Source: Patescibacteria group bacterium
Lineage (GTDB): Bacteria > Patescibacteriota > WWE3 > UBA101185 > UBA10185
Assembly (NCBI GenBank): GCA_016926555.1
Contig: JAFGOI010000013.1
Location: 44,802 to 108,801, forward strand
Length of the DNA stretch: 64,000 nt
Direction of reading: 5' to 3'
Every line of letters begins with the position of its first letter. The first letter of the stretch is position 1. The notes under the pieces are model-generated. The model was not told the origin of the DNA. It was given only the letters and a program-made list of their open reading frames with translations, and ran no database searches. This document shows, in pieces, positions 2,043 through 20,087 of the stretch. The position numbers and the translations under genes were made by a program.

Positions 2043-2062
2043 TTGACTCTAATTGATATAAT

Positions 2063-3680: not shown

Positions 3681-5209
3681 CATTAGGTCCTTTGTTTTTA
3701 ACATTAATTCCTCCTTTATGGCTTCTTTCAAATAATATAGGACTTATGTCCCTTCTAGATATATCTGGTTTGTTAGCTACATTTCTTTTTAGTACTGGAA
3801 TTACGCTCGTCGCGGTTAAATATGTTGTTAAAGATACTCAAAGGACATCGCTAGTCACTACTATAATTATATTTCTATTTTTCTGTTACAGTATGCTAAA
3901 TACTTCTCTTATGAGTTTTTTTCCCCTTTTACCTCCCGAATTTATCAAAGTGCTTACACTTATTATCTATATCCCTATTCTTCTTATAGGGTTTAAATTC
4001 AGGTTCCCAGATGTATTTCCATTGTGGAAATTTAACCAATTTCTAAATATTGTTCTCGGAACTCTGGTTGCCCTTTCAATGTATGATATTGTGCACATCA
4101 GTATATCTGAGAACATACCTATTCACCCTAAAAACATTCCTTCAAACATAGACAAGCCCTTTGTGTCTGACAACACTTATCCAGATATTTATTACATTAT
4201 TCTTGATGCACATTCACGCGCGGATAAAGTCGAAGAAATATTCGGCAGCAAATCAACAACAATATTAGTTGACGAATTGAAAAAAAGGGACTTTTATGTA
4301 GCAGAAAACAGCGTGTCAAATTACCACACTACTCTCTTATCCCTATCATCTTCATTAAACATGAATTATCTTCACAATCTAGTCGAAAAGCCCTCTTCGG
4401 ACAGAATCAACTACGTACCATTTAAAAACTTAATCAATAACTGCTCAATTCAACAAATCCTAGAAGAACACAGTTATGAAACTATAAATGTAAAGTCGAA
4501 GTCCATGTGTACAAACATTACAGCACATACTAGCTTTTTATATCCAAAACATCAGTTCAATGAAGCGGAAAGCAGACTAATCGAAATGACACCTCTCCTA
4601 GATCTGGGTTTTGGAGAAATATTGAAAAAACAAATGCATACCGGCATTGAATATGAGTTTGCAGTGCTACCAAAAGTAGCGTTAAAAGATGAGGCTACCT
4701 TCACATTCGCTCACATCTTATCTCCTCATCCCCCATTTGTATTTAGTAGCACAGGGGAAATGGTAGATAACATCCCTTGGAGAGGATATAAAGAAGCTGT
4801 TTCATATAAAGGCCTCGCTGAAGAATATCTAGCCGGATATAAAGACCAAGTAAGTTATATAGATACCCTAATTCTTGAAACAATAGACCTTATCCTAAAA
4901 AATTCAAAACAAAAACCAATAATTATAATCCAAGCGGACCACGGATCCGGATACAGAGAGCGTCTTTATCCCGAAGATTACAACACCGAAATTAAGCTAA
5001 AAGAAAAAATGTCCATACTTAATGCTATATATTTTCCCGATAATAACTATGAACTTCTGTACGATAACATCACTCCTGTAAATACATTCCGTGTGATACT
5101 AAATAAATTCTTCGGAAAGGATATGGAACTTCTCGAAGACAAAAGCTATCAAACAACCTGCGAAAACCCCTACGCGTATAGGGACGTTACAGAAATAGTA
5201 AAGAAATAA
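3620..5209 (+). CDS. membrane-anchored alkaline-phosphatase-superfamily protein (sulfatase/LtaS-like)
   Basis: 529-aa ORF with about 5 N-terminal TM helices, then a soluble domain with YIILDAHSR...IIIIQADHGSG. These resemble the metal-binding segments of LtaS/sulfatase-family enzymes. The start may be internal, since it overlaps the upstream gene by 61 nt. Confidence 0.5.
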   Translation: MSAVKKIKKNSLSYEQKNVLTLGPLFLTLIPPLWLLSNNIGLMSLLDISGLLATFLFSTGITLVAVKYVVKDTQRTSLVTTIIIFLFFCYSMLNTSLMSFFPLLPPEFIKVLTLIIYIPILLIGFKFRFPDVFPLWKFNQFLNIVLGTLVALSMYDIVHISISENIPIHPKNIPSNIDKPFVSDNTYPDIYYIILDAHSRADKVEEIFGSKSTTILVDELKKRDFYVAENSVSNYHTTLLSLSSSLNMNYLHNLVEKPSSDRINYVPFKNLINNCSIQQILEEHSYETINVKSKSMCTNITAHTSFLYPKHQFNEAESRLIEMTPLLDLGFGEILKKQMHTGIEYEFAVLPKVALKDEATFTFAHILSPHPPFVFSSTGEMVDNIPWRGYKEAVSYKGLAEEYLAGYKDQVSYIDTLILETIDLILKNSKQKPIIIIQADHGSGYRERLYPEDYNTEIKLKEKMSILNAIYFPDNNYELLYDNITPVNTFRVILNKFFGKDMELLEDKSYQTTCENPYAYRDVTEIVKK

Positions 5210-5324
5210 GACATACTTGGCGAATTCGCTTCCGCACAAATTCAAATATAATTTCACAAATGCAATTGGTATTGCAACAAGAGAAGACGTTTCAAATTAA
5301 TTTAATGCTATAATATGCCCACAA

Positions 5325-5930
5325 ATGGTATTTGCATCATTTATAGAAAATCCAAGTAAAACACACTACGATGGGGAGGATAAGGGTGAACGTATTCTTT
5401 ATGTAATGAGAAGCGCATTCTTAACTAACTACAAATGGCTTACCCTAACCATAATCATGATCCTAGCTCCCTTTTTAATGGACATTTTCCTGGCCACACT
5501 AAAATTTGACGGAAGAATGTTGCTGAAACCAGGATTCATAGTTATGTTTACCTTATTTTGGTACACAGGAACATTTGGGTACTTCCTAACGAAGTTCTTA
5601 CTTTGGTATTTCAATGTTTATATAATCACAACAAAAAAAATAGTGGACATGGATTTTAGAGGTCTCTTCTACAAAAATATATCGGAAGCAACTTTAGATA
5701 ATATAGAAGATGTTACATCAACAGTTAAAGGAACGTTTGGCGTTGTCTTTAACATAGGAAATGTTTTCATACAAACTGCTGCTGAAACTAGGGAATTCGA
5801 ATTTGAGGGAGTACACGACCCCGCAAAAGTTAGAGATATAATCTCCGATCTGGTAAGAGATATTAGAGACTCTTACATGCGCGGGAAAGGTTTCTCAAGA
5901 AGGGGGGAAATCCTACTTAAAGAAGATTAA
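5325..5930 (+). CDS. membrane protein, hypothetical
   Basis: 201-aa ORF with 2-3 TM helices followed by a soluble C-terminal domain. A TATAAT-like element lies at about 5305-5310. Confidence 0.45.
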   Translation: MVFASFIENPSKTHYDGEDKGERILYVMRSAFLTNYKWLTLTIIMILAPFLMDIFLATLKFDGRMLLKPGFIVMFTLFWYTGTFGYFLTKFLLWYFNVYIITTKKIVDMDFRGLFYKNISEATLDNIEDVTSTVKGTFGVVFNIGNVFIQTAAETREFEFEGVHDPAKVRDIISDLVRDIRDSYMRGKGFSRRGEILLKED

Positions 5931-5938
5931 GGTTTTAT

Positions 5939-6181
5939 ATGACTAACTATATTGACTTTATAGCAAAACTATTTACAGTGAATGGAGCAGTTGACGTAAT
6001 TGAGTTTTTCGTTTTCATTACAATGGTTATCTATACACTTCTTGCATTTATTCTAACCCGACAAGTAAAACTCATGAATAGAAGTTTTACAACCCCATAC
6101 GCTCCTTTATTTAGAACATTGGCGCTTCTTCACTTTGGAGCTTCTATTCTTGTAGCTACTTTGACTCTTTTCATTATTTAA
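5939..6181 (+). CDS. small membrane protein, hypothetical
   Basis: 80-aa ORF with two hydrophobic helices, tightly spaced between neighbouring genes. Confidence 0.35.
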   Translation: MTNYIDFIAKLFTVNGAVDVIEFFVFITMVIYTLLAFILTRQVKLMNRSFTTPYAPLFRTLALLHFGASILVATLTLFII

Positions 6182-6184
6182 CAT

Positions 6185-8023
6185 ATGAAAAGAAAACTAA
6201 CTGCGAAAATACAAAAACTCAATCCCACACACCAGGGAACAACTACAAAAGCTTTCGCACAAAGTTTAGTCATAGAACCGGAAACTCGCAAACTCGCGTT
6301 GCAAAAAGGCACTATTTACGCCGTATATGATATCTCCAGCGATCTCGAACTGGAACATAGTGTTATATCAAAAATCGTCCATGATATACTTCGGGATCTG
6401 TACTTCCAGTCGGAAAATATATCCCCAACACAAACTCTGGAAAAAACCATCTTAGAAATAAGAAACAAAGTCACGCAAATGGACGAAACTAGCAAAACTA
6501 GATTTAACATTGTCGCGGCAGTATTATGGGGAAATGTATTATATTCAGTACAGTTCGGCTCCGGAAAAAGCTACCTCGTCCAAGAAGGTGAAATTAGACC
6601 GATAAGTACTATCTCTGAAGGAAATTTCGCGGCAGCTTCAGGAGTAGTCAACGATGATGACGTAGTCATTCTATCCACAGAATCCTTTGACAACGAGTTC
6701 CCGCCAAAAAAGCTACTATCATCATCCATACCGGAAAATAATCTCGCGGCACAGCAGGCCGCAATACTAATGAAATTCATTGTAGACACTGAGTTTTCCG
6801 AAAACGAAATAGTAGACTTTGGTCTTGAAGAAACCAAAAGAAAAGGCAACCTGTCTCAGAAAATAAAAAATCTCTTCAAAAAACTTACTAACGCCATTAA
6901 AAAAGGTAGACTACAGGCAAAATCTACTAATATGTCAAACAGGAAATTAATCATCATTATAGGCCTTACCGTACTATTAATACCTATCGCGGTTTTAATT
7001 GTCAAGAAAAGTAAAAAAACCGAAGAACCCACAGAACCCGCACAGGAGCAACTCTTAGGCATGGATATCAAAAGGGAAACAAATACTTGGGAGGAGGAAA
7101 AAAAGAATGACGAGAAAAACAAAGTCGTCAGAATATCCCCAGAAGCATTCTTTGATATTAAAATCATAGACGACACAACTGATCCTACTGAAATAGAAGT
7201 AGTCGATGAAAAGATTATAGTAGCAGCAAAAGACAGCGGTAAAATCTTCATATCCGAGATGGAAACTCCCAATTTCGAAAAAACAAACCTTGAATTTCCG
7301 GGGGTTGAGAGTCTAAACAGCTCAAAAAGCGCCTTATCCTTCAACGATAATGAAGGGTTCAAATATTTCAACATAGAAACAGCTGAAGTAGACGAAAGCT
7401 ACGAAGATCCTGATCTTACACTTACAGATACATACATGGACTTTATATACGCCATAAAAGGCAATCAGATAATCAAGTTCACAAAAGAAAATGGTTATCT
7501 AAGCAACACAGTATGGAGCGACGATGAAAGGTTTTCAAACGCAGTGTCTTTATCTATAGCATACAGTATTTTTGTAACTACAAAGGACAGTTCGATTTTA
7601 AAGTATACTGCGGGAGAATTTGACCCTTTCGAACATACCAAATTAGAAATACCTTTAGGACCTAGAATAAAAATATTTTCCGATACGTTACTGAACGATA
7701 TATACATCCTGGATCCGGATAACAAAAGAGTAGTCATCTTCAACGATTCGGGCGAACTTATAAAACAATACAAAACGGAAAAGGAGGAGACCTGGAATAA
7801 TATGAAGGATATCTCGGTTTCTGATGACGAAAAATATATTTATGTGCTTAATGACACAAAAATATACGTAATAGGTCTTGATGTTGAAGAATTCGAAGAA
7901 GAAGCAGAGACAGAAGAATCCCCACAGGTGGAAGAAAGCGTGGATACAACAGAAAACACTTATACGAATACTTCCACAGATAATGTTGAAGTAGGAGACA
8001 CTTCCGCAGGTATTACCGAGTAA
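6185..8023 (+). CDS. bitopic membrane protein: cytoplasmic degenerate PP2C-like domain, one TM helix, extracellular beta-rich domain, acidic tail
   Basis: 612-aa ORF. The N-terminal segment GTIYAVYDISSD...NIVAAVLWGNVLYSVQFGSGKSYLVQEGEIRPIS...DDDVVILSTESFDNEF parallels PP2C motifs (DGxGGH, GDSRxYLxRDGExxQLT, LLLCSDGL), but the metal-binding Asp residues are replaced. A TM helix spans about residues 255-275, and the C-terminus is Glu/Asp-rich. Confidence 0.5.
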   Translation: MKRKLTAKIQKLNPTHQGTTTKAFAQSLVIEPETRKLALQKGTIYAVYDISSDLELEHSVISKIVHDILRDLYFQSENISPTQTLEKTILEIRNKVTQMDETSKTRFNIVAAVLWGNVLYSVQFGSGKSYLVQEGEIRPISTISEGNFAAASGVVNDDDVVILSTESFDNEFPPKKLLSSSIPENNLAAQQAAILMKFIVDTEFSENEIVDFGLEETKRKGNLSQKIKNLFKKLTNAIKKGRLQAKSTNMSNRKLIIIIGLTVLLIPIAVLIVKKSKKTEEPTEPAQEQLLGMDIKRETNTWEEEKKNDEKNKVVRISPEAFFDIKIIDDTTDPTEIEVVDEKIIVAAKDSGKIFISEMETPNFEKTNLEFPGVESLNSSKSALSFNDNEGFKYFNIETAEVDESYEDPDLTLTDTYMDFIYAIKGNQIIKFTKENGYLSNTVWSDDERFSNAVSLSIAYSIFVTTKDSSILKYTAGEFDPFEHTKLEIPLGPRIKIFSDTLLNDIYILDPDNKRVVIFNDSGELIKQYKTEKEETWNNMKDISVSDDEKYIYVLNDTKIYVIGLDVEEFEEEAETEESPQVEESVDTTENTYTNTSTDNVEVGDTSAGITE

Positions 8024-8079
8024 ATATATAAAATTATCCTTTACATCAACCAAAATGGAAGGTAGAATACGTTTCGCTA

Positions 8080-8424
8080 ATGCTTGAAAAGAAATATATA
8101 ACAGAAATTCTACAAAGAACATATTGTTATAAATGCGGTGCTAGCATGGAAAATGCAAAAATTATACCAATAACTGAAGCCCCGTTAGCCTTAGTAGCTC
8201 ACACAGTATGCCCTGCATGTCAAGCAGAAGCTATGCTTACTATCACTCCCGTTGGAAGTGGTTTGATGCCCATCAGATCAGATCTAAAGGGGGACGAGAT
8301 TAAAAAGTTTATAGGTGCTAATTCCGTGAGTTTTAAGGAACTGCTAAAACTGCACGCATCATTAAAGAAAGAAAGTATATGGAACTTACTGCAGAAAAAA
8401 GACAGGAATCAGGAAAAAAAGTAA
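8080..8424 (+). CDS. zinc-ribbon protein, hypothetical
   Basis: 114-aa ORF with a CYKCG...CPACQ four-Cys arrangement. Its 3' end overlaps the rplY start by 46 nt, so its status is uncertain. Confidence 0.35.
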   Translation: MLEKKYITEILQRTYCYKCGASMENAKIIPITEAPLALVAHTVCPACQAEAMLTITPVGSGLMPIRSDLKGDEIKKFIGANSVSFKELLKLHASLKKESIWNLLQKKDRNQEKK

Positions 8425-9044
8425 GACACTTACGAAAAGAAAATAAAATACCTGCCGTTATGTTTGGCAAAGGTCTTGAATCAGTGTCTTTGTCCTTGAA
8501 TTATCTTGATTTTGATAGATTATACAAGGAGGCAGGTGAAACTAATCTTATTGACCTAAATTATAACAGTGAATCTCATAAGGTTCTGATCAAAGAAGTC
8601 CAGTATGACCCTATATCAGACAAAATAATCCATGTGGGATTTTATAAACCAGACCTTACCGAAAAAGTAGAAGTAAATGTACCTGTGGAAGTAATCGGTG
8701 AAGAAGAAAACGACCTTATTAAAAGCGGTGAAGCTGTTGTACTGGTACTCCTTCAGGAAATAACAATAAGCGCGCTTCCTACCGAGCTAAAAGATGCTTT
8801 TGTCATTGATGTTTCTAAACTAACTGAAGTCGGCGCTGCTGTTACAGTCGCACAATTAGACTATGACAGGGAAAAAGTTGAAATCGTTGACGTGGAAAAG
8901 GATGAGGCTGTTGTAAGGCTAGATTACGCTCAAATGGCCGAAGAAGAAGAGGAAGTCAGCGAAGAAGAGCTTATAGAGGGTATTGAAGCCACTGAAGAGA
9001 CTGAAAAAGACGAAGAAGAGGCTGAAGATACAGCCGAAAGTTGA
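8379..9044 (+). CDS. rplY: 50S ribosomal protein L25 / general stress protein Ctc form
   Basis: The N-terminus LTAEKRQESGKKVRHLRKENKIPAVMFGKG is the canonical L25 start. The long acidic C-terminal tail is typical of Ctc-type L25. Confidence 0.8.
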   Translation: MELTAEKRQESGKKVRHLRKENKIPAVMFGKGLESVSLSLNYLDFDRLYKEAGETNLIDLNYNSESHKVLIKEVQYDPISDKIIHVGFYKPDLTEKVEVNVPVEVIGEEENDLIKSGEAVVLVLLQEITISALPTELKDAFVIDVSKLTEVGAAVTVAQLDYDREKVEIVDVEKDEAVVRLDYAQMAEEEEEVSEEELIEGIEATEETEKDEEEAEDTAES

Positions 9045-9067
9045 ATTCTATAGATTGACCTATAATA

Positions 9068-9096
9068 TTGCACCCCCTATAATTTTATAGTATACT
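9068..9096 (+). promoter_or_regulatory. candidate sigma70-type promoter (TTGCAC-N17-TATACT) in the AT-rich leader before the GC-rich island
   Basis: Read directly from the sequence. It lies about 200 nt upstream of the first island gene. No transcript data are available. Confidence 0.3.
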
Positions 9097-9303
9097 TCAA
9101 ACAATTTTCCAACTTGTAATCTGCTCTTAGTGCAGGTGAAAACTAATTATTATGGCACCTTGAAAACCCGTATGGGTTGATAGGTCCTACATACACTTAT
9201 ATTTCCCTCTAGTTATCCTGGGATTTGAGTGTATGTTGGGCTTATTAACCCGAATGAACTGGAAAACTGAATAAGAACATAAACTTTTGAAAGGAGGAAG
9301 GCC

Positions 9304-11112
9304 GTGGCGAAAAAGAAGAAAGGCCACGAGAAGAAGAGCGGAATTTCGATCTGGCAATTCCTCGGAAAAGCCCTATCGATTTTTACCGCTTTCTTCCTGT
9401 GGTTCGCCACAGGATTACCCTTCTCGCTGGTGCCCAAGTGGCAGAAGTGGACAGTGGCAACGGTTGCCGTTGCTGAAGGCGCTGATATTGGCAGGACTGC
9501 AATCTCATGGAACGCTGACCTGCTTCCTGATCTTACCCCAGAACTCATAGCCGTTGGCATTGAGAATGGGGTGCATCCGGATGCTTTGAGTGGGATGGTG
9601 AAAGCCTCTGCGCTCGAACGGAGCATTGCGTCCGGACTTCCAGAAGCCGGTACAGGCCTGAGAGTAGATATGTACACGATAGGCGGTATTGGTGATATCG
9701 AGAGTTCTCTCGATGTGGACTCCGTGAACCCGGAGGAAAAGAACGTTACCGGGGGATGCAACGCGGTGTGGGAGCTAATGCACCACCCGTTGCTGGACGG
9801 AGTTAAGGAGGTAAACGCCCTTCGCCAGATAGCTAAGGCACAGGGCTTAAACCTCTGGAAGATCAAGGGAAGCTGCGGAGCCGGCTGCGTGGGGTGGAAT
9901 CAAAGTCTCCCTACTAACTGGATCCGACTAATGGGACCCGAGTTCGACCCATGGAACCGCGAACACGCGCAAGAGTTCACAGCGCGTTACTTGGTCGCGG
10001 ATGGTGATTACTTCACCATGGGTCGTGAGCACGCAATTAGGGCTTACAACCCTAATGCAAGCGACGCGGAATACTTGCAACCAGTACTCGCAAGAGCAGC
10101 TCAGTTGCAGACGGCTTTTGAGGAAGCAGAGCTAGCTGCCCCGGAAGTTGAGCTCAGAACATCAGAGCTTACACTGGCGGGAGATGAAGAAACAGAAGAA
10201 AACATAGTTGAAGTCGAACTTGAGGAACCGACAACAGAGTCGGTTACTGAACTCGACGGATGGCCCGTTCCCCTAGGTACGGGCAGAACTGGCGTACCTT
10301 TTGGAGCACCGTCTAGTTACCAGCCTCAAGGGCATTCAGGGATCGACCTGGGCGTATCTACAGGCACCCCGATCAAGAGTGTCGGGTCCGGAGTCGTCGT
10401 CTACGTTGGTTGGTTCCCGCAGCAGGCGTTGTGGAAACTGAGAAACATCGGTCACGGTAATACTGTGATCGTGTACCACGGGGTAGCATCGGATGGAGAC
10501 CCTGTGTATTCCTACTACGCACACCTTTCTGAATTCGCTGTTGAAACCGGCGAGTACGTTCAGGAAGGCGATATCGTAGGTTTATCAGGAAACACAGGCG
10601 CATCCAGCGGTCCCCATCTCCATTTCGCCATCCGAAAGGGCGGTGGAATCGAGTATGACGGGGCTGATGCAGACGGCCGTGATTGGTCAGACGGCCAGTG
10701 GGTTGATCCAGATCTCTGGGTCAACAACACCCAAGGAGGTGGTGAATTCGAACTTACAGCAGAGGTCCCAATCAGAGGCAGAATCACCGGAGGTACGTCG
10801 AGAGAGGTGACAGTTATACTCTTGAATACTCCCTCCGTAGAATTTGCAGCTTGGTTGGGAAAGGTTTCGCGAGCGGCAGAACAAGGCGTGGCCATCCTTG
10901 AACGTACTCCTATCCCGGAAGTAGTTCGGGAAACGGAGCGTGTTTCTACTCTGACCGAGCTTCTCGAATCAATCAGCTCGGCAGGAAAAAGGTGGTATGT
11001 GCCAGTTTCTACCCTCGCCATAGCGGGTCAACCTAAAGAGCTAGGGCTCAACCCGCTGGTAGACTGGGCTATCATCAGTATCGGTGAAGAAACTGATAGC
11101 CCTTTTAAATGA
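9304..11112 (+). CDS. membrane-anchored M23 (LytM-type) peptidase with large N-terminal domain of unknown function; first gene of GC-rich island
   Basis: 602-aa ORF starting at GTG, preceded by AAAGGAGGAAGG. It has a Lys-rich N-terminus and one TM helix. The C-terminal domain carries M23 signatures GHSGIDLG (HxxxD) and GPHLHFAI (HxH), plus YYAHLSEF. GC content is far above the flanks. Antisense ORFs in this stretch are GC artefacts. Confidence 0.75.
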   Translation: MAKKKKGHEKKSGISIWQFLGKALSIFTAFFLWFATGLPFSLVPKWQKWTVATVAVAEGADIGRTAISWNADLLPDLTPELIAVGIENGVHPDALSGMVKASALERSIASGLPEAGTGLRVDMYTIGGIGDIESSLDVDSVNPEEKNVTGGCNAVWELMHHPLLDGVKEVNALRQIAKAQGLNLWKIKGSCGAGCVGWNQSLPTNWIRLMGPEFDPWNREHAQEFTARYLVADGDYFTMGREHAIRAYNPNASDAEYLQPVLARAAQLQTAFEEAELAAPEVELRTSELTLAGDEETEENIVEVELEEPTTESVTELDGWPVPLGTGRTGVPFGAPSSYQPQGHSGIDLGVSTGTPIKSVGSGVVVYVGWFPQQALWKLRNIGHGNTVIVYHGVASDGDPVYSYYAHLSEFAVETGEYVQEGDIVGLSGNTGASSGPHLHFAIRKGGGIEYDGADADGRDWSDGQWVDPDLWVNNTQGGGEFELTAEVPIRGRITGGTSREVTVILLNTPSVEFAAWLGKVSRAAEQGVAILERTPIPEVVRETERVSTLTELLESISSAGKRWYVPVSTLAIAGQPKELGLNPLVDWAIISIGEETDSPFK

Positions 11113-11150
11113 TCTAACTTCACACACATCAAATAAGAGGAGTTACAACA

Positions 11151-12089
11151 ATGGAAGCCAAGTTTTGGACGTGGATGAAAGCATTCGTGGTTATCATCCT
11201 GGCCGGAGCACTATCCGGGACGGGATGGTGGGTACTAGTCGGTCGCGGTCTCAAAGGAATCACAACCGCGCCGGGACAGGTGGCACAAGGATATACTGGG
11301 GAAGAGAATCCTTCGATTCAGATACCAGGAGGTCCTCACTGCCTGTTCGGAGGCAAACTGTGCGTCAACATGGGGGGTACCACTTTCTACCTCCCGACTG
11401 GCGAAGAAAGCTGGCTCGACGAAGGCGGCAGTGGAGGCAGTGAAAGCCAAATCGTCACGTTCGAAGTTCCGGAAGAGTCTGAGGACACGACTGGAGCTCA
11501 GACAGCACCGGAGACCAATACGGGTGGCGCAGCTGAGTACATTCGTTCAGGCAAGTGCGCCATGTACGTTGGGTTCCTCAAGGGACTTGGCGACGGCGCA
11601 GACTACACACTCGTAGAGGAACAAGCCAACGAAGTTCTGGCTGAGTGCCCCGGAAACGACGTGGAAGCCATGGAAGTGGCAGCCGCAGCAATGGGGGCGG
11701 TGGGCCTGTACAAGGCGCGACTCCAGGCGGAAGCCGATACAAGACAAATGGCGATCGACTCATGGAACACCGTCGCAATGGCAGCCGAAAGCCTCAGTCC
11801 GACGGACACACGAGGCTTTAAAAGCATCGTCACGGAGCTAGGTGGAACGTTTCACCTGGCCGAGATCGAAGGCTTGTTGCCGAAGATCCTACAGAGGATT
11901 GTTGGAGGCGGTGAGCCTTGCCATGTGTACGTCAACCCACCGACTCTTATGGCAGGCGACGTTAAGGCCGTAGAGATGACGGTTCAACTAGCCGTCCTCT
12001 GGGACCTTGGTATAGGCGCGGAAGGACATGGGCTGACCCTGCCGACAGTTCCCGAGTTCCCAGCGGACTATACACTGACGGAGGAGTGA
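11151..12089 (+). CDS. hypothetical signal-anchored or secreted protein (island gene 2)
   Basis: 312-aa ORF preceded by AAGAGGAG. It has an N-terminal hydrophobic helix (FVVIILAGALSGTGWWVLVG), is GC-rich and has no recognisable domain. It starts 38 nt after the M23 gene stop. Confidence 0.55.
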   Translation: MEAKFWTWMKAFVVIILAGALSGTGWWVLVGRGLKGITTAPGQVAQGYTGEENPSIQIPGGPHCLFGGKLCVNMGGTTFYLPTGEESWLDEGGSGGSESQIVTFEVPEESEDTTGAQTAPETNTGGAAEYIRSGKCAMYVGFLKGLGDGADYTLVEEQANEVLAECPGNDVEAMEVAAAAMGAVGLYKARLQAEADTRQMAIDSWNTVAMAAESLSPTDTRGFKSIVTELGGTFHLAEIEGLLPKILQRIVGGGEPCHVYVNPPTLMAGDVKAVEMTVQLAVLWDLGIGAEGHGLTLPTVPEFPADYTLTEE

Positions 12090-12099
12090 GGAGGCTACT

Positions 12100-12990
12100 A
12101 TGTCCAAGAGATCAAGGCTACTCGAGGAAAAGTACGCCAAAGAAAGGGCGAATCAGGACGCAGATGCCGCAAGAGCAGCCGTAGAGGAGCTGGAAAGTAC
12201 CTGGCAGGCTCGTAAGGGGCTTCTACAGCGACTCTATATCCCTCGGCCCAGCAAGCCGTCATTCCTGGGTTGGGGGTGCCTGTTCGAAATCCTCTACTGG
12301 ACGGCTGTGTTCGTGCTGTGGCTCTACACACCGAGCATTTTGGCACCAGCAGCCGGGATCGGATTGCGACTGTATATGTTGCACAGGTCAGGGAAGCTAC
12401 TGGGGACACTGCCGCAAGATGTACGCGACAAGATCGGCGGTGATGAGGATGAGAATGAGGAATCAGCCGGGAAAGGATCCGGTTTCTTCACCTTCGTGGT
12501 TAAGCTAGGGGTATCCCTGGCTGTCATAATAACCACCGTAGCAATCACCATCAGTGCCCCAGGGTTGGCAGCCCTCTTCGGACTGGTGCTGACGGGTATC
12601 AGCTTCATCTGGCTACGTAAACCAAGCCGACCTTGGCAGGACTCAAAAGGCTTGTGGCATATACACCCCGCCTTCCTGTACTCCCTCCTTACGGGACAGA
12701 TCGGGTACATGTTCCAGAGGTTCTCCTATGGACCGAAAGGAACACGAATTAGCCGCTGGCGGATCTTGAGCTTCGGACGAGGTGAAAGCAATGTGGGAGG
12801 ATCCACAACAGACATCGACGTAGATGTGACTATCCTATCGTGGTTGCTTGGCGCAGCCATTGTTACAATAGGAAGTTCCGGGGGAGATCCCGACGAAGCC
12901 TTCATACCAAGGTGGGCAGACATCGACACCATCCTCAACCACATCATGGAGAACATCAAGGACGAGGGCGATGGGGAGGACGATGAATGA
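12100..12990 (+). CDS. hypothetical polytopic membrane protein (island gene 3)
   Basis: 296-aa ORF preceded by GAGGAGG, starting 10 nt after the stop of gene 2. It has about 4 hydrophobic helices, an acidic loop and an acidic C-terminus, and is GC-rich. Confidence 0.55.
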   Translation: MSKRSRLLEEKYAKERANQDADAARAAVEELESTWQARKGLLQRLYIPRPSKPSFLGWGCLFEILYWTAVFVLWLYTPSILAPAAGIGLRLYMLHRSGKLLGTLPQDVRDKIGGDEDENEESAGKGSGFFTFVVKLGVSLAVIITTVAITISAPGLAALFGLVLTGISFIWLRKPSRPWQDSKGLWHIHPAFLYSLLTGQIGYMFQRFSYGPKGTRISRWRILSFGRGESNVGGSTTDIDVDVTILSWLLGAAIVTIGSSGGDPDEAFIPRWADIDTILNHIMENIKDEGDGEDDE

Positions 12991-13261
12991 AAGCCCAATG
13001 GACGGGGGACCGCCCCATGCAGTTTCGCCAGTTCACATGCGGGAGCAGCAAGAAAGGAGACAAGAAAAGCTAACTGCCCGGAGCCCTCCGCTCTACCTAC
13101 TACACACAATATGTCGTGTGCAGCAAGGGGAACGGGGGGCTTCGTCGTTTTATAGACTTTTTTTGAGTTAGAACCACAACACCTTTACTAACACTTTAGA
13201 TCGCAAAAATATTACTTACTTTCAGAAATGAGAAACCATTCAAAATCTAATAAAATAAATG

Positions 13262-15706
13262 CTAAACTTCAGGCCATTTAGAAACTGCAATAGGATTATC
13301 GTATTTTCTCGGAATATTTTCCCACACAGCCTCAGTCACAAACGGCATAAACGGGTGTAACAACTTCAAACTATTTAAAAACACATGTCTTAACACGCTT
13401 AACCCTATCCTTTTACTCTTTATATCTTCTCTATTCTTAACATCTTCAATATATATATCTGCAATTTCATGCCATAAAAAGTGGTACAGTGCGTCCCCTG
13501 CCTCCATAAATCTGTATTTCTCAAGGTTTTCAGTCACATATGTTACTAAATCTGAATACTTATTTAATATCTCCACATCCACCTCAATGAAATCCTCTGG
13601 ATCTAGCCACGGATTGCAGTCACAAGACTCTGTACAGGTACAATGCTTCAAAAACGGTACATCTTCACCAGTTTCTTCCTTGTATGAATCCGCCATCATA
13701 ATCATAAACCTTCCCATATTCCATATTTTGTTTGCAAAATTCCTGTAACCTCTAACTTTATCGGCGCTAAAAGAAGTAGTTCTAGCTGCTGAATTTCCTC
13801 CAACCAGCATACCCATTCTTAACGCGTCTGCTCCATACTTTTCCACAAATTCCAATGGATCTATAACATTTCCCTTGCTTTTACTCATCTTTTGACCTTT
13901 TTCATCGTCTATTCTTCCGTGAATATATACATTTTCATAAGGAACTTTCGGACCATCTTCATCATCCTTTGTTAAATAGAGCGAAAACATAATCATTCTA
14001 GCTATCCAGAAAAACAGAATGTCCCACATAGAGTCCATAAATTGGGTTGGGAAAAACTCCTTGTAATCGTCACCATCAGGATAACGCAAAGTTGCGAAAG
14101 GCCATTGCCCCGATGAAAACCATGTATCAAATGTGTCTGTTTCAGGTATGAATTCTTCGTTTATCTGATCTTGTCCAGCTTTTTTATCAAGACCCGTATT
14201 GATTCTCTTACCCGGATCTTCAGCGCTTATTTCATATCTTGCATCTTTTGGAACGATTACTTTTTGTAAACCTTCCTTAATTTCATCCAAACTAAAACCT
14301 TCTTCCCTAAGATCGTGCAATAATCCCTCATGACTGTTACCATCTTTGTCAATAAAAACAACAAAGATTCCCCCGTTCTCATTAGATTCAGAATCCTTTA
14401 CGTAATACCAAATAGGAATCCTAATACCAAAAACGGTCTGTCTGCTTATCGGCCAATCATGAATATTTTCAAGCCATTTGAGTGACTCTCTCTTCCACAA
14501 ATTTCTATTGTATTTAACTTTTCCCGTTCTTATTGCCTCTATAGCCATACTTGCCAGATTAATTTTCTTGTCAGTCATTTTTACAAACCAATTTGGCAAA
14601 AGCATAGGCTCAATAGGTTTTTTATCTTTATAATCAACAAGAAGGTTGTGTGTGTACTTCTCGTCTATTTTTTCTAAAGCGCCTTTTTCCTCAAGAATCT
14701 CTACAGTTTTCTTACGAGCTGAATGTACTCTCATTCCGGCTACATCAGAAGCCTCTTTTGTCATTTTCCCTTCCAAATCAACCACGGAAATCATGGGCAA
14801 ATTGTGTTTTTTACCTATTTCATAATCATTAAAATCGTGTCCCGGGGTAATTTTTAACGCACCTGTTCCAAAATCTATATCCACGTACTCATCTTCAATA
14901 ATTTTCATTTCTCTGCTATTTAACGGATTTATAGCTACCTTTCCAACATATTTTTTATACTTTTTATCTTTTGGATTTACCGCAATGGCAACATCGGCAT
15001 ATATTGTTTCTGGGCGCCCGGTCGCCACAGTTACAAATTCATCTGAATCCTTGATTTTGTATTTAACATAGTAAAGCGGAGAAACCTCTTCCACATGTTC
15101 AGTCTCTAAATTGCTAAAAGTGGTCCCATGCGTAGGAGAATAATTCACAAGATAGTCATCCCTGTAAACTAAACCATCTTTGTGCATTTTTTGAAAAGTA
15201 TCGTAGACAGTATCAATTACATGTTGGTCCAACATAAAAGTAGACCGATCCCAATCACAGCTCATGCCCATTTTTTTAAGCTGATCTATTGCCATATCAG
15301 AGTTTTCTAATACAAAATTTAAAATATCGTTGTACAAAGTTTCTCTGTCAAAATCAAATCTGGATTTACCTTCTTTTTTTAGTTTTCGTTCGTATACAAC
15401 TTGAGTTTCAAAACCGGCGTGATCTGTTCCCGGAACATACAAAGTTTTGTATCCTTGCATTCTTTTAAACCTTGTCATTAAATCCTGAATCGCATATGTC
15501 GCGTGCCCACAGTGCAGGGGAGCGTTAGCGTTTGGAGGAGGTATTAAAACAGTGTAAGTTTCATAAGTGCCATCAGCATTTTTCTTTACTTCCAAACCAG
15601 CGTCTTCTCTCATTTTTATACTTTTTTCAGGTGAAAAGACACCAAGTTCTTCCCACTTTTTATATATTTTTTCTTCCCACTCTTTGTGGTCGTATTTTTT
15701 GTCCAT
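13262..15706 (-). CDS. valS: valine--tRNA ligase (ATG at 15706 preferred over the track's GTG start at 15736)
   Basis: HIGH-type motif PLHCGHA and KMSKS are present. The N-terminus MDKKYDHKEWEEKIYKKWEELGVF aligns to the ValRS start. The upstream GTG extension would read through a hairpin and U-tract. Confidence 0.9.
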   Translation of the reverse strand: MDKKYDHKEWEEKIYKKWEELGVFSPEKSIKMREDAGLEVKKNADGTYETYTVLIPPPNANAPLHCGHATYAIQDLMTRFKRMQGYKTLYVPGTDHAGFETQVVYERKLKKEGKSRFDFDRETLYNDILNFVLENSDMAIDQLKKMGMSCDWDRSTFMLDQHVIDTVYDTFQKMHKDGLVYRDDYLVNYSPTHGTTFSNLETEHVEEVSPLYYVKYKIKDSDEFVTVATGRPETIYADVAIAVNPKDKKYKKYVGKVAINPLNSREMKIIEDEYVDIDFGTGALKITPGHDFNDYEIGKKHNLPMISVVDLEGKMTKEASDVAGMRVHSARKKTVEILEEKGALEKIDEKYTHNLLVDYKDKKPIEPMLLPNWFVKMTDKKINLASMAIEAIRTGKVKYNRNLWKRESLKWLENIHDWPISRQTVFGIRIPIWYYVKDSESNENGGIFVVFIDKDGNSHEGLLHDLREEGFSLDEIKEGLQKVIVPKDARYEISAEDPGKRINTGLDKKAGQDQINEEFIPETDTFDTWFSSGQWPFATLRYPDGDDYKEFFPTQFMDSMWDILFFWIARMIMFSLYLTKDDEDGPKVPYENVYIHGRIDDEKGQKMSKSKGNVIDPLEFVEKYGADALRMGMLVGGNSAARTTSFSADKVRGYRNFANKIWNMGRFMIMMADSYKEETGEDVPFLKHCTCTESCDCNPWLDPEDFIEVDVEILNKYSDLVTYVTENLEKYRFMEAGDALYHFLWHEIADIYIEDVKNREDIKSKRIGLSVLRHVFLNSLKLLHPFMPFVTEAVWENIPRKYDNPIAVSKWPEV

Positions 15707-15912
15707 AAAAAACCTCTCATTACTGAGAGGCTCCACAAACTAATTTTAGTGGAAGGTACCAACCTTCTCTATACTTTATTTACAGCTATAACGGGCATTC
15801 CCGTCGGGTTCTAGTTTCCTGCGGAGCGCGTCAAAACAGCGCTACTAGACGCAAAATTTCTTCCCGAAGCATCACCTGGTGACATGATCCAAGCTCAGAC
15901 GCTTTTAGTTTA
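15707..15912 (-). promoter_or_regulatory. candidate T-box-like leader of valS: terminator/SD-sequestrator hairpin plus alternative antiterminator with UGGUACC bulge
   Basis: On the minus strand, CCUCUCA-GUAA-UGAGAGG followed by U6 abuts the ATG, and GAGAGG also serves as the SD. Upstream, GAGAAGG-UUGGUACC-UUCCAC...GUGGAG-CCUCUC can fold as helix A1, a 7-8-nt bulge and helix A2, mimicking the T-box motif AGGGUGGNACCGCG. CCGUUA (F-box-like) lies about 25 nt further 5'. The segment is locally GC-rich (visibly above the surrounding AT-rich DNA). Confidence 0.4.
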
Positions 15913-15920
15913 ATATGAGC

Positions 15921-15948
15921 ATTATAGCAAAAACGTGGAATTTGCCAA
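15921..15948 (-). promoter_or_regulatory. candidate promoter for valS leader (minus strand TTGGCA-N16-TATAAT)
   Basis: Read from the reverse complement. It lies inside the N-terminal extension of the proS ORF as given in the track. Confidence 0.35.
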
Positions 15949-15974
15949 TTAATCTGTTAAAATCGATTGCAGAT

Positions 15975-17669
15975 ATGAGATATTCACATTTATTCGGTAA
16001 AACCGTAAGACAACCTAAAAGAGACATGCAAAATTCCTCACATAAACTTCTTTACCAAGCGGGATTTGTAAGAGAAAGTACCGCAGGAAGATACTACTTC
16101 TTACCTTTAGGTATTCGTGTCAGAAATAAAATCATAAAAGTTATAAGAGAAGAAATGGATGCTACAGGCGCACAGGAAGTTCTCACTCCTGTTATGCATC
16201 CTGTTGAACTGTGGCAGGAAACTAATAGAGATAACGAGGCCGGCTTTGAATTAACAAAAGTAGTTGACAGAAGGGGTGCGGAATTCGCTCTTGGCGGGAC
16301 AGCTGAAGAAATGATGGTAGAGTTATGCAGAAAGTTTGAGCTTTCATATAAAGATTTACCCTTTAATATCTACCAATTTTCACAAAAATTCAGGGACGAA
16401 TTAAGAGCAAGAGGGGGTTTATTAAGAGTAAGAGAATTCACGATGAAAGACGCTTACTCATTTCACACTAATGAGAAAGACTTTGAAAAAGAATACGAAA
16501 AAATGGCTGAAACTTACAAAAGAATTTTTGATCGATTGGGACTAAAAACAGAAAAAGTACTGGCAGACAATGGATATATAGGAGGAGATTACTGCCATGA
16601 GTTCGTCGTCGAATCAGATATTGGAGAAAGCAAGTATTTAGTGAGTGAAGACGGCACATATATCGCTCACGAAGAAGTAGCTAAATTTAAAAGAGAAGAG
16701 GTTAATACAGATGAAGAAGAACAGCCTTTTGAAATAATCCAGCAGCCTGAATGGGTCACCACAATGGAAGACAACTTTAAACACTATAAACTTCCCGCGC
16801 AACGATTTCTAAAAAATGTAGTATACAAAAACCGCGTTTCACAAGAAATAGTAATTGCTGTTATAAGAGGAGACCTTGAAGTAAACAAAACAAAACTTGA
16901 ACACGTCTTAAATGCTGTAGGACAATTAGAAGAAGCTTCAGAAAAAGATCTGGAAAAAATCGGAACTAAACCGGGATATGTTCATTCCTGGGGTCATGAG
17001 AGCGTAACCTACGTAGGAGATATATCTCTTACTACCGTCAAAAACTTTATAGGCGGACAAAAAGAAAAAACTACAGATTCAAAAAATGTAAATTATGGCC
17101 GGGATTTTGAATGTGAAATATTAGCTGATATAGCTTTAGCAAAAGAAGGCTACCTTACGGAAAACGGACAAAAACTTACAGAGAAAAAAGGCATTGAAGT
17201 AGGAAACATTTTCCAACTGGGACTGCATTACTCATCAAAAATGGCAAACGCCGTATTTACTGACACCAATGGTGAAAAAAAACCTTACTATATGGGATGT
17301 TATGGGATCGGAATTGGGCGAACTCTTGCCACTATAGTTGAGGTATATCACGATAATAAAGGTATTATATGGCCGGAAATCGTAGCGCCTTACAAAGTTC
17401 ACTTAATTTCTCTTAACACAGAAAATGATGAAGTCAGACTACGCGCTGAAAAGATATATAAACAGTTCCTAGAGGCAAACATAGAAGTTTTATACGATGA
17501 TCGGGATCAAGTAAGCGCGGGAGAAAAGTTTAGTGATGCTGATTTAATAGGCTGCCCCTACAGAGTAGTCGTTTCGGAAAAAACAGGAGACCAAGTTGAA
17601 ATAAAAATACGGAACGGAGAAAACGCAGAGCTGATTAATACTGATATTTTAATAGAACGTCTGAGATAA
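15975..17669 (+). CDS. proS: proline--tRNA ligase (start at MRYSHLF preferred over 15915)
   Basis: The N-terminus MRYSHLFGKTVRQPKRDMQNSSHKLLYQAGFVRESTAGRYYFLPLG aligns with the bacterial ProRS start. Class II motifs FRDE...RGGLLRVREFTMKDAYSFH are present. Confidence 0.9.
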   Translation: MRYSHLFGKTVRQPKRDMQNSSHKLLYQAGFVRESTAGRYYFLPLGIRVRNKIIKVIREEMDATGAQEVLTPVMHPVELWQETNRDNEAGFELTKVVDRRGAEFALGGTAEEMMVELCRKFELSYKDLPFNIYQFSQKFRDELRARGGLLRVREFTMKDAYSFHTNEKDFEKEYEKMAETYKRIFDRLGLKTEKVLADNGYIGGDYCHEFVVESDIGESKYLVSEDGTYIAHEEVAKFKREEVNTDEEEQPFEIIQQPEWVTTMEDNFKHYKLPAQRFLKNVVYKNRVSQEIVIAVIRGDLEVNKTKLEHVLNAVGQLEEASEKDLEKIGTKPGYVHSWGHESVTYVGDISLTTVKNFIGGQKEKTTDSKNVNYGRDFECEILADIALAKEGYLTENGQKLTEKKGIEVGNIFQLGLHYSSKMANAVFTDTNGEKKPYYMGCYGIGIGRTLATIVEVYHDNKGIIWPEIVAPYKVHLISLNTENDEVRLRAEKIYKQFLEANIEVLYDDRDQVSAGEKFSDADLIGCPYRVVVSEKTGDQVEIKIRNGENAELINTDILIERLR

Positions 17670-17677
17670 CAAAATAG

Positions 17678-18709
17678 TTAAACAATATCAATAATACCTA
17701 AAGATGAATCTGCGTCTATTTCCGAAAGATTTCTAGGATGATTATTAAAATACGCCGCGCTAGCAATGTATACAGCATTATCCGTACATAGATGTAATGG
17801 CGGAATATGAGTTTTTACACCTATATTGGCCGCTTCATTTTTTATTCTTGTGCGTAATTGCAAATTAGCAGACACACCTCCTCCCAGCAACAACGATTTA
17901 ACTTTATATTCTTTAGCAGCCTTTATACTTTTTGATACTAATACATCTACAACAGCATTCTCAAACTCACACGCAATAACATCAGGGGGATAAATATCCT
18001 TTTCAATAAGTCTTTTTACTGCTGTTTTTAAACCTGAAAACGAAAGGTCGTATTTATCACTATCCAGCAACGGCCTTGGTAATACACCTATCGCCTTATT
18101 ATCTTTACATGTAGATGCTAATCTAGATAGTTCAGGACCGCCCAAATACTTAGATAGACCGAGTAAACGAGCTGTTTTATCAAAAGCTTCGCCAACTGCA
18201 TCATCAAGAGTTCCTCCCAAATAAATTAAATCGCCATGCCCTCCCATCAAAACCAAATCTGTATGACCTCCACTTACGACAAGAGCAAGTGAGGGAAATT
18301 CCGGCAAATCTTCCGCATCGACCCAATTAGCATAAATATGTCCGACAAGATGATTTACGGGAATCAAAGATTTTTCCCACGCTAATGAAAGGGCCTTTGC
18401 CGCTTCAACCCCTACCAATAAAGAACCTATTAAACCCGGTCCAACAGTAACTGCAAGCATATCTATATTTTCCCTAGCATAATCAATAGAGGTGTTAGTA
18501 TCAGCTTTATCTGAAAATTTTTTCACGATATTATCCAATACAGGAATGATGAACTCTACTTGCTTTCTAGCAGCAACCTCCGGAACTATCCCCCCCGTTT
18601 CCTCATGAAACTCCCTAGAAGAAGCAACAACACTGCATACCTCTTTTACACCATCTTCTACTATCGCTGCCGCTGTTTCATCACAAGATGTTTCTAAAGC
18701 TAATATTTT
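17678..18709 (-). CDS. tsaD: tRNA N6-adenosine threonylcarbamoyltransferase TsaD (Kae1/YgjD family)
   Basis: N-terminal MKILALETSCDETAAAIV and HLxGH motifs, with the typical TsaD length. The start is taken at the MKILALE methionine. Confidence 0.85.
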   Translation of the reverse strand, partial: KILALETSCDETAAAIVEDGVKEVCSVVASSREFHEETGGIVPEVAARKQVEFIIPVLDNIVKKFSDKADTNTSIDYARENIDMLAVTVGPGLIGSLLVGVEAAKALSLAWEKSLIPVNHLVGHIYANWVDAEDLPEFPSLALVVSGGHTDLVLMGGHGDLIYLGGTLDDAVGEAFDKTARLLGLSKYLGGPELSRLASTCKDNKAIGVLPRPLLDSDKYDLSFSGLKTAVKRLIEKDIYPPDVIACEFENAVVDVLVSKSIKAAKEYKVKSLLLGGGVSANLQLRTRIKNEAANIGVKTHIPPLHLCTDNAVYIASAAYFNNHPRNLSEIDADSSLGIIDIV

Positions 18710-18758
18710 CATAACATCAACTAACAAATTATATTACTTAAAAAGGAATTATTGCTTA

Positions 18759-20087
18759 CTACTGAGATTTTAATATTTTATCCTTTGCTGCGGTTAAAGC
18801 GTCTAACGGAGAAACGCCCTGATGTAACACAGCATCCACTGCCTCCTTCATCGCCGTTACTTGATCCTTATTCCCAGCTCGAGCCGCAATAGAACCTGAC
18901 CTGGCTATTAGCGCATCCTTTACATAAGGCTCCAAAAAGTGCCCGGGGGCTATCTGATCGGCTAGACCAACTTTACTATATACAGGTCCGAATTCACGAT
19001 ACTTCGCAGCAGCATTATAATAGACCAGCTGAGTTTCTTCCTCAGTTAGATACTTTATAAATTCCCATGCCTGTTGCTGGTATTGACTTCCCACCGGAAC
19101 GGCTGCCATCCAATATGTAGCCCAACTAGTATATTTATCACTATCTTTCTCAGTCAATGCCTGAGGTACTTTCGCTACTCCAATATCAAGATCCGGCCTC
19201 TCCTTTAATATATCCAAAACAATCCATGATGGAGCAAATATCATAGATACCTTTTCCTGAGCAAATGCTGTAGCAGATTCAGGCATATTTTCAGACCACA
19301 CTTCGTCCTCCAAAACAAAGTTTACATAAAACTGCAGGGCGTCTGCTGCATATTTCGAATCCAAATCCTCCGGAACATCCGTTAGTGCTTGAACAAACAT
19401 CAAACCTAAGATATCTGAAAAGAAATCGATATTAGAAGCGCATCCTAAAGCCGCACCAGCTCTAATAAGTTCTCTATCTCTGCCCTCGGAAAAAACGGTA
19501 AGCTGCATAGCTAACTTTCTAAATTCCTCCCAAGCAGTAGGAGGATACATCTGGTCAATTTCGTTGAAATGCGCTTTGTTATAAATAAGGGCTAACCCGT
19601 CATAATACATCGGAACCGCATATACTTCACCATTATATACACCGCTTTCGCTAGCCGTGGGATACATATTTTCCGCCACAAAAGTGCTGTCTATATTTTT
19701 AGACGGAACCAAAACATTTCTAAGTCTGGGTACCCACGAATTATGAACTAATACTATATCAAAAGAACCCTCTTGCGATGCTCGTGTAAACACAGCTTCT
19801 TTGTAATCATTTACATTAACTATAGTTCTATCATCAAAGTTAATAGTAATATTTGGATGATCTTGCTTATACTGAGTTATAAGCTCTTCCATTACCTCAG
19901 GTTTCTCCCACAAACTCCAAAAATTTAATGTGACGGGTTCTTCTGTATTACCGCCTCCATCTCCTCCGCCAAAGAATTTCCCAATCAGCGGCAAATCCCG
20001 AAGTGAACAGGCAGTAACAAAAAAAGGTATTATTAACAAAAGGGCAAGTGCAGCCTTCTTACTACGCATCCCTTGTATTATAGGCAT
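18759..20087 (-). CDS. ABC transporter substrate-binding lipoprotein (family 1 solute-binding, probably carbohydrate)
   Basis: Signal peptide with a lipobox-like VTAC, a Gly-rich linker, and a roughly 400-aa periplasmic binding-protein fold. The likely true start is the MRSKK methionine at 20069. Confidence 0.6.
   Translation of the reverse strand: MPIIQGMRSKKAALALLLIIPFFVTACSLRDLPLIGKFFGGGDGGGNTEEPVTLNFWSLWEKPEVMEELITQYKQDHPNITINFDDRTIVNVNDYKEAVFTRASQEGSFDIVLVHNSWVPRLRNVLVPSKNIDSTFVAENMYPTASESGVYNGEVYAVPMYYDGLALIYNKAHFNEIDQMYPPTAWEEFRKLAMQLTVFSEGRDRELIRAGAALGCASNIDFFSDILGLMFVQALTDVPEDLDSKYAADALQFYVNFVLEDEVWSENMPESATAFAQEKVSMIFAPSWIVLDILKERPDLDIGVAKVPQALTEKDSDKYTSWATYWMAAVPVGSQYQQQAWEFIKYLTEEETQLVYYNAAAKYREFGPVYSKVGLADQIAPGHFLEPYVKDALIARSGSIAARAGNKDQVTAMKEAVDAVLHQGVSPLDALTAAKDKILKSQ

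Follow-up and report, generated by a model that had tools for sequence, protein, structure and literature searches.

The leader of valS, the gene for valine--tRNA ligase (ValRS), was analysed in a 64,000-nt stretch of Patescibacteria DNA (hereafter the window). We conclude that this leader is most likely a divergent, functional T-box riboswitch that responds to tRNA-Val, with a truncated decoding module and a compact expression platform, and we put the probability of this reading at about 0.85. It can be seen that the T-box landmarks are present in canonical order on the minus strand, between a promoter at 15948-15921 and the valS AUG at 15706 and co-oriented with the gene, and that the same placement recurs at four homologous loci. 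The motifs are conserved, their helices covary, the RNA has two mutually exclusive folds, and the leader is homologous to genuine T-boxes. An initial annotation of this DNA had described the region as T-box-like, a reading upheld by the conserved specifier and bulge context, by the covariation and by the recovery of genuine T-boxes with a covariance model built from the leader and its relatives.

Elements of the valS leader

The four homologous leaders lie on other Patescibacteria contigs, where they immediately precede valS, or a small open reading frame (ORF) and then valS, in the same orientation. They are L085, from a metagenome contig; L165, from GCA_964396025.1; L171-173 (L171 below), whose 5' end is lost at the contig end; and L174. 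Together with the window they make up the five leaders compared here. The ValRS that accompanies L085 is 44% identical to that of the window in the best-matching segment, the lowest value among the leader carriers. L085 and L165 also served as training sequences for a covariance model, R1, with which L171 and L174 score 62 and 67.7 bits, respectively. Protein-seeded scans of genome and metagenome contigs returned mostly distant ValRS loci, and L085 alone had the leader among the matches listed.

The 5' part of the leader forms an ultrashort Stem I (15867..15904, minus strand, as for all leader features below), made up of a C-stem (AAGCG/UGCUU), a kink-turn (K-turn) motif and an NC helix (GCUUGG/CCAGGU). 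The K-turn motif, with a UCU bulge at 15899-97 and tandem GA/GA at 15896-95 and 15873-72, matches the consensus at the sequence level. The NC helix is capped directly by a 9-nt apical loop, AUCAUGUCA (15888-80), which carries the specifier GUC, a Val codon, at 15883-81; the next base is a purine, A at 15880, adjoining the CC of the 3' strand of the helix. When compared by hand, this region (AAAGCG-UCU-GA-GCUUGG...CCAGGU-GA-UGCUU) matches the Rfam consensus 'AaagCgaUGAaagGG...CCcugGAGcuu'. GUC followed by a purine is kept in all five leaders (AUGUCA, UUGUCG, AUGUCA, UUGUCA and ACGUCA), in the apical loop wherever Stem I is complete, and R1 aligns the specifier region to 'AAUGUCGCC' of a genuine Anaerolineales valS T-box. 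There is thus a Stem I that can display a Val codon, and the codon is conserved across five lineages. Pairing of the NC helix is kept in several variants (GCUUGG/CCAGGU, GUGUGG/CCACAC, AUCUGG/CCAGAU and CUCGG/CCGAG), three of its pairs showing double compensatory changes, and the C-stem varies between AGC/GCU and GAC/GUC. The GA/GA element of the K-turn is present in L085, in L174 and in L171 (3' GA only, as the 5' side is cut off).

Stem II (15805..15866) comprises a lower helix (CGGG/CCCG), an internal loop and an upper helix (UUUUGCG/CGCAGGA). The strands of the internal loop are S-turn-like, with 5' AAGAAA opposite 3' AACUAGAA, and they are conserved among the five leaders as (A)AGAA(A/C) and A(G/C/U)UAGA. 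The strands 'GAAGAAA...AUUAGAAC' also occur in the genuine T-box L056, and the Rfam consensus has GAA/AGUA. The lower helix covaries (CGGG/CCCG, CAGA/UCUG, CGGA/UCCG and CUUG/CAAG). Stem II of the window additionally has its own insertion of ~35 nt, which forms a GCGC..GCGC hairpin. We considered this hairpin as a ValRS operator mimicking the anticodon loop of tRNA-Val and rejected it, as its loop, UGUUUUGAC, forms no 7-nt anticodon-like loop.

Downstream of Stem II, ACGGGAAUGCCCGUUA corresponds to 'aCGguuauuucCGUUA' of the Rfam consensus. The Stem IIA hairpin, CGGG-AAUG-CCCG plus UUA (15789..15803), includes the F-box CCGUUA (15794-89), 27 nt upstream of the T-box bulge. This hairpin is kept in all five leaders as CGGG..CCCGU(U/C)A, matches 'CGguuauuucCGUUA' of the Rfam consensus and is identical in sequence to 'CGGGAAUGCCCGUUA' of L056. 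In L171 and L174 the F-box reads CCGUCA, a form that has been reported for Nocardia farcinica (N. farcinica) ileS (PMC7583486). A 19-nt linker, UAGCUGUAAAUAAAGUAUA (15770..15788), joins the F-box to the antiterminator and contains a conserved RAGUA (AAGUA in the window), RAGU being kept across leaders as AAGUA, GAGUA or AAGUU. L171 has a 35-nt insertion at the linker with a 5-bp hairpin, CAUCC-UUGC-GGAUG.

The antiterminator, or ON fold (15725..15769), consists of two helices, A1 and A2, on either side of the T-box bulge. In A1, GAG-A-AGG (15769-63) pairs with CCUCUC (15730-25) and leaves a bulged A, and in A2, UUCCAC (15754-49) pairs with GUGGAG (15736-31) around the loop UAAAAUUAGUUU. The bulge itself is U+UGGUACC (15762-55, with UGGUACC at 15761-55); it is 8 nt long, or 7 nt plus a U·G pair, and is exactly 7 nt in L174. 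UGGNACC is present in all five leaders, N being U in four of them and A in L165. The discriminator base usual for tRNA-Val is A73, with which N = U would fit. The surroundings of the bulge are likewise maintained by compensatory changes. A1, always with its bulged A, occurs as GAG-A-AGG/CCU-CUC, as AAG-A-AGG/CCU-CUU (L165) and, wholly replaced, as CG-A-UUAGA/UCUAA-CG (L174), and A2 as UUCCAC/GUGGAG, UUUCAC/GUGAAG (a change from C-G to U-A in L171) and GUCCC/GGGAC (L174). The motif TGGNACC occurs 17 times per 128 kb, both strands being counted, so that ~0.03 occurrences would be expected per 206-nt leader on one strand; the chance of finding it at the single position flanked by A1 and A2 is far less than this.

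Immediately before the valS start lies the terminator, or OFF fold (15707..15730), which is formed by CCUCUCA (15730-24), the loop GUAA, UGAGAGG (15719-13) and a U6 tract (15712-07). The sole Shine-Dalgarno (SD)-like sequence, GAGAGG (15718-13), forms part of the 3' arm, and AUG (15706) follows right after U6. A hairpin with at least five U is conserved in all five leaders with differing stems and loops (stem variants are CCUCUCA/UGAGAGG, CCUCU(U)GG/CCGGAGG and ACGCGC/GCGCGU).

As noted above, the L171 and L174 sequences supply further compensatory changes, which fall in A1, A2, Stem I, Stem II and the terminator; their helices were counted by hand, and the alignment guided by the covariance model misplaced the L171 insertion. 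In a three-sequence MAFFT alignment made without fitting to the structure, 95.5% of cells are paired. Both partners have changed in eight pairs, compared with 2.8±1.3 in shuffles (0/500) and with no more than 4 in slid controls.

Covariance-model searches

We searched the window and 166 valS loci (~860 kb, both strands) with R1. This gave 17 non-self matches at E<0.01, R1 E-values being rough, and every one of them was on the + strand just upstream of a Chloroflexi or Firmicutes valS. The best non-self score was 43.2 bits for L056, and others included 37.7 for L074, 32.2 for L010, 32.0 for L111 and 30.5 for L046. All ten of the matches that were checked overlap RF00230 (T-box) matches of 75-96 bits (E 2e-14 to 6e-20), and R1 had no other match elsewhere in the window. 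The parts shared in the alignments are the specifier region 'AAUGUCGCC', the Stem II strands 'GAAGAAA...AUUAGAAC', the identical 'CGGGAAUGCCCGUUA' and the 3' 'GGAAGGUUUUUUU'. On the strength of these alignments we conclude that the leader is a homologue of valS T-boxes from which distal Stem I and Stem III have been lost, and no look-alike.

T-boxes upstream of proS in the same lineage

The gene divergent from valS, proS, has T-boxes of its own in two of the related loci. RF00230 matches L085:27-176 (minus, 41.1 bits) and L165:700-782 with 649-711 (minus, 32.6 bits), both scores lying below the gathering score. In the L085 proS T-box 5 nt take the place of 74 model positions in distal Stem I, and that of L165 ends in a long hairpin and U6. 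These elements resemble the valS leader of the window in their divergent proS/valS neighbourhood, truncated Stem I and hairpin with U6, but differ from it in that the canonical T-box sequence, AAGGUGGUACCACG, and Stem III are both retained, which is why RF00230 detects them. The proS of the window has no such leader and no room for one. In L165, ~100 N separate the proS and valS leaders (L165:797-897), and the 5' half of the proS T-box is unreadable there.

Alternative folds and proposed mechanism

CCUCUC is common to A1 and the terminator, so that the two folds are mutually exclusive, and this arrangement is kept in all five leaders. In the nascent RNA, modelled by omitting the 3' arm of the terminator, the antiterminator is the minimum free energy (MFE) structure of four leaders out of five, namely the window (-12.2 kcal/mol), L085 (-15.1), L171 (-13.3) and L174 (-11.7). 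In the full RNA the terminator is the MFE structure in all five (-23.0 kcal/mol for the window, -24.7 for L085, -22.3 for L171, -20.2 for L174 and -18.8 for L165); the nascent L165 RNA has a different fold, of -7.5 kcal/mol. The full-length MFE of the window also contains an OFF-state hairpin, GAAGGU-UGGU-ACCUUC (15751..15768), in which the ACC of the bulge is paired with the 5' strand of A1. Hairpins of this type are present in the window, L085, L165 and L171; since L174 has none, the hairpin is probably accessory.

Most of these parts had been recognised in the initial annotation. The terminator hairpin and U6 before the valS ATG, with the only SD in the 3' arm, were confirmed where it had placed them; the alternative fold that it drew, GAGAAGG with the 5' arm together with UUCCAC/GUGGAG, is the -12.2 kcal/mol structure given above; and the UGGUACC bulge, the F-box CCGUUA and the GUC-A are all at the positions it gave. 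Its UGGUACC context proved to be conserved in relatives as UGGNACC. It had missed that GUC-A occupies the apical loop of a hairpin built on a K-turn, and also the competing GAAGGU/ACCUUC hairpin.

Reading these features together, we propose how tRNA binding, discrimination between charged and uncharged tRNA, termination and masking of the SD might take place. Transcription would start near 15914, and the short Stem I (K-turn plus 6-bp helix) would present GUC and its purine in the apical loop, with Stem II, bearing its S-turn-like loop, and the Stem IIA/F-box hairpin docking alongside, an arrangement known from T-boxes that contain a Stem II. The GAC anticodon of uncharged tRNA-Val would bind GUC, and pairing between the free 3'-ACCA of this tRNA and UGGU in the bulge would stabilise A1 and A2. 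With the antiterminator stabilised, RNA polymerase would pass the U6 tract. With CCUCUC engaged in A1, the SD GAGAGG would then remain unpaired and translation of valS could proceed. When tRNA-Val is charged, the antiterminator would go unstabilised and the more stable CCUCUCA/UGAGAGG hairpin with U6 would form, terminating transcription just before AUG; on transcripts that escape, the same hairpin would also mask the SD.

The output of the switch is probably intrinsic termination. In L171 and L174 the hairpin and U tract end 12-27 nt before the start codon and the hairpin has no usable SD, and it is for this reason that the U-tract terminator looks like the conserved output and SD masking like an addition. 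In the window, L085 and L165 the SD is within the 3' arm and the U tract is the spacer between SD and AUG, so the same refolding should also gate translation there. The SD sequestration proposed initially for the window would thus hold in these three leaders but not in L171 and L174, and is no property of the whole family.

It could be argued that the T-box acts on translation only, via sequestration of the SD, and that the U tract is simply an AU-rich spacer between SD and AUG at which no termination occurs. The position of the SD in the window, L085 and L165 is compatible with this, and an ultrashort Stem I without a platform is described as typical of translational T-boxes, transcriptional ones being said generally to need a long Stem I (PMC7583486). 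Likewise, a crude scan of window positions 1-40000 found no enrichment of hairpin-plus-U terminators over shuffles (14 found against 17.7 expected, and 16 against 15.5). The scan also misses the valS hairpin itself, probably because G·U pairs lengthen the stem into the U tract. However, at least five U directly follow the hairpin in all five leaders, including L171 and L174 with no usable SD, and the L165 proS T-box ends in the same way. We therefore regard a purely translational switch as unlikely.

Evidence against a functional T-box and further explanations

Apart from the terminator scan, a number of findings weigh against a functional T-box for tRNA-Val. RF00230 (Rfam release 15, gathering score 93 bits) gave no match in the whole window at the gathering threshold, nor at E≤10 in 15600-16050, so that on this check the T-box of the initial annotation was not recovered. 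At E≤10 it also failed to match the L085, L165, L171 or L174-type valS leaders, on which Rfam as a whole gave chance-level matches only (for example, to snoRNA and miRNA families). As positive controls, Firmicutes and Chloroflexi valS leaders scored 102-131 bits at the gathering threshold. The leader has no distal platform on Stem I (AG bulge and distal loop) and no AGAGA/UGGNA elements, and about 70 Rfam consensus positions are missing there, which cover the 5' side of the specifier internal loop, the AG bulge and the distal loop. The 19-nt linker forms no convincing Stem III, its best helix being of 3 bp (GCU/AGU), and no complement of the 4-nt IIA loop was found in it for a IIB pseudoknot pairing. 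The failure of RF00230 is explained by the missing distal Stem I positions and the want of a real Stem III, as judged by hand comparison. The distal platform is not obligatory for the T-box family, since a class with short or ultrashort Stem I has been described (PMC7583486).

Further points of this kind concern single leaders and the sample. The 3' strand of the putative S-turn reads ACUAGA in the window instead of the AGUAGA found in L085 and L165; L165 has no GA/GA K-turn, and its UGGAACC is at odds with the A73 that is usual for tRNA-Val. No tRNA-Val gene was found in the window or in the related loci examined from the candidate phyla radiation (CPR). Only five leaders support the family, and R1 was built solely from those of the window, L085 and L165. 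The leader is also absent from closer ValRS relatives, namely L001 (65% identity; its proS and valS are only ~42 nt apart), L166 and the P0003 locus, the last judged without its DNA. More widely, it was not found in L001, L161-164, L166, L167 or L169-170, and its distribution among close relatives is patchy. The ValRS of P0002 is 72% identical and its called gap to proS is 462 nt.

Several of these findings would suit a decayed T-box, a relic that no longer senses tRNA and is now a constitutive attenuator, an SD-masking structure or functionless: the missing Rfam match, Stem III and Stem I platform, the patchy occurrence among close relatives, and L165 with its 'wrong' UGGN base and no K-turn. 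Yet the positions that would sense tRNA (GUC and purine, UGGNACC and F-box) are the most conserved of all, at ValRS identities down to 44%, the helices are maintained by compensatory changes, and the bistable overlap of A1 and terminator is held in five lineages, which is not expected of a relic. We consider decay improbable. Least probable is that the element is no T-box at all, being instead a protein-binding autoregulatory leader (e.g. a ValRS operator), a stand-alone small RNA or a proS leader; the negative Rfam result, the intergenic region shared with divergent proS and a strong promoter and terminator that could define a ~205-nt transcript would agree with this, but R1 recovers genuine valS T-boxes on the right strand and at the right position, the element is co-oriented with valS in L165, L171 and L174 regardless of the upstream neighbour, none of the hairpins mimics the anticodon loop of tRNA-Val, and UGGNACC is absent from the proS strand.

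The locus and neighbouring sequences

The host genome has ~37% GC (Patescibacteria/CPR, WWE3/Microgenomates-like), with valS on the minus strand and proS divergent on the plus strand. The putatively regulated gene, valS, occupies 13262..15706 (minus), its likely true start being ATG 15706 with the conserved N-terminus MDKKYDHK. In the database ValRS entry (P0001, 824 aa) the start is placed at GTG 15736, which lies within helix A2. This annotated start is probably ten codons too far upstream, as homologues begin MDKKYDH at ATG 15706, and the leader analysis corrects the start codon given in the database. The proS ORF opens at 15915 and has its conserved start, MRYSHLFGKT, at 15975; given these two starts, the valS-proS intergenic region is 15707-15974.

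The putative promoter (15921..15948, minus) has a -35 TTGGCA (15948-43), a 16-nt spacer and an extended -10, TG-n-TATAAT (15926-21). The promoter of the initial annotation, TTGGCA-N16-TATAAT, was borne out with 11 of 12 positions matching and the extended -10 in addition; it is tied best in window 1-20000 and is the sole top match there with an extended -10. The start of transcription is predicted near 15914, which would give a leader of ~205 nt, and promoter-like hexamers were read by eye at an equal distance from Stem I in L085 and L165. The leader is, as had been observed, GC-richer than its surroundings (45% against 37%), and it folds better than shuffled sequences (z = -3.06).

Gene order around valS varies among the related loci. 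In L164, L165, L166 and L167 a DUF1232 gene (67-83 aa) is immediately upstream of valS in the same orientation, and because the T-box of L165 precedes this gene, the riboswitch would control a two-gene operon there. L168 has a small membrane-protein ORF before valS, and in the leader of this pair (L168:1000-1225) a T-box-like GUUGAGG-UGGUACC-UCCGUAU..AUACGG-CCGCAAC is followed by CCGAG-UCUGU-CUCGG-U7-AUG; this leader was scored by neither RF00230 nor R1.

No tRNA, rRNA or other Rfam family was found in the 64-kb window (1-64000) at the gathering threshold. Two other TGGNACC sites in the window were considered as T-boxes and rejected. That at 3345 (AUAGGGUGGAACC) is in an apparent coding remnant before a sulfatase-like gene, which is not an aminoacyl-tRNA synthetase (aaRS) gene, and that at 9153 is before an M23 peptidase with no adjoining aaRS gene. 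The apparent gap around the first (3261-3619, +) contains a T-box-like AUAGGGUGGAACCUUC, and is negative with R1 and Rfam; its translation resembles the C-terminus of a protein, and it may be what is left of a gene. The window also includes an island of 47-54% GC (9300-13000) that may have been horizontally acquired; it begins with an M23-peptidase-domain protein (9304-11112), whose promoter-like site (9055-9083) and SD are both strong.

Significance and comparison with known systems

The genomes of CPR/Patescibacteria are tiny, and few regulators are known from them. The T-box is the standard example of one RNA being read by another, and the distribution and minimal architecture of T-boxes have been defined mostly from Firmicutes and Actinobacteria. 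The leaders analysed here suggest that CPR/Patescibacteria use tRNA-sensing leaders on aaRS genes, on valS in the window and on proS in relatives. As RF00230, with its gathering score of 93 bits, misses the valS leaders completely, riboswitch censuses would undercount CPR leaders; the short-Stem-I model of TBDB was run genome-wide on Actinobacteria only. In the literature searched we found no paper linking T-boxes with Patescibacteria or CPR, an absence that is no proof of novelty. Within that literature the element is of a known kind, a T-box, and what is new is the variant of its architecture and the host group.

We tentatively suggest, at somewhat less than even odds, that Patescibacteria carry a distinct, uncatalogued T-box class having an ultrashort Stem I, Stem II and IIA with neither Stem III nor platform, wired to an intrinsic terminator, and that in the window a single hairpin also masks the SD. 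If so, the class would contradict the rule that transcriptional T-boxes need the platform of a long Stem I for fast capture of tRNA, and no natural transcriptional T-box with a Stem II would be smaller. An ultrashort Stem I joined to a terminator-like platform would be a natural test of the requirement for contact with the tRNA elbow, and an element of ~190 nt with no Stem III could be a compact scaffold for structural or synthetic-biology work.

The canonical valS T-boxes (RF00230; Chloroflexi Anaerolineae/Ktedonobacteria and Firmicutes) share with the leader the order of elements from the K-turn base to the Stem II strands GAAGAAA/UAGAAC, GUC with a purine and then CC, the identical 'CGGGAAUGCCCGUUA', and a UGGUACC bulge between A1 and A2 that is followed by an overlapping terminator with a U tract, and they score up to 43 bits with R1. 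Unlike them, the leader has no distal Stem I platform for the tRNA elbow (~70 model positions) and its Stem III is absent or vestigial. It also has a purine-rich A1, GAGAAGG rather than AGGG, an A2 of UUCCAC rather than GCG, a bulge of 8 nt or of 7 plus U·G, and a terminator that abuts the start codon and carries the SD.

The second comparison, by published descriptions, is with the ileS T-boxes of Actinobacteria (Mycobacterium tuberculosis, M. smegmatis and N. farcinica; class II), mainly translational elements from which an apical specifier on a short Stem I, a K-turn and a dependence on the Stem II S-turn and F-box are known (PMC7583486; PMC11297988). The leader differs from these in its host group, in reading Val and not Ile, in the conserved U tract after the competing helix, and in having no Stem III, no clear IIB pseudoknot and none of the A2 insertions described for translational T-boxes. 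In common with them it has the short Stem I, the apical specifier followed by a purine, the K-turn, a Stem II with S-turn-like strands and a Stem IIA hairpin with the F-box, recalling the S-turn and IIA/B module on which they depend, and an SD in the alternative helix (PMC7583486; PMC11297988), as well as, in L171 and L174, the F-box CCGUCA. The actinobacterial parallel drawn in the initial annotation fits better than was claimed, the Stem I being of the ultrashort apical-specifier type seen in the ileS T-boxes.

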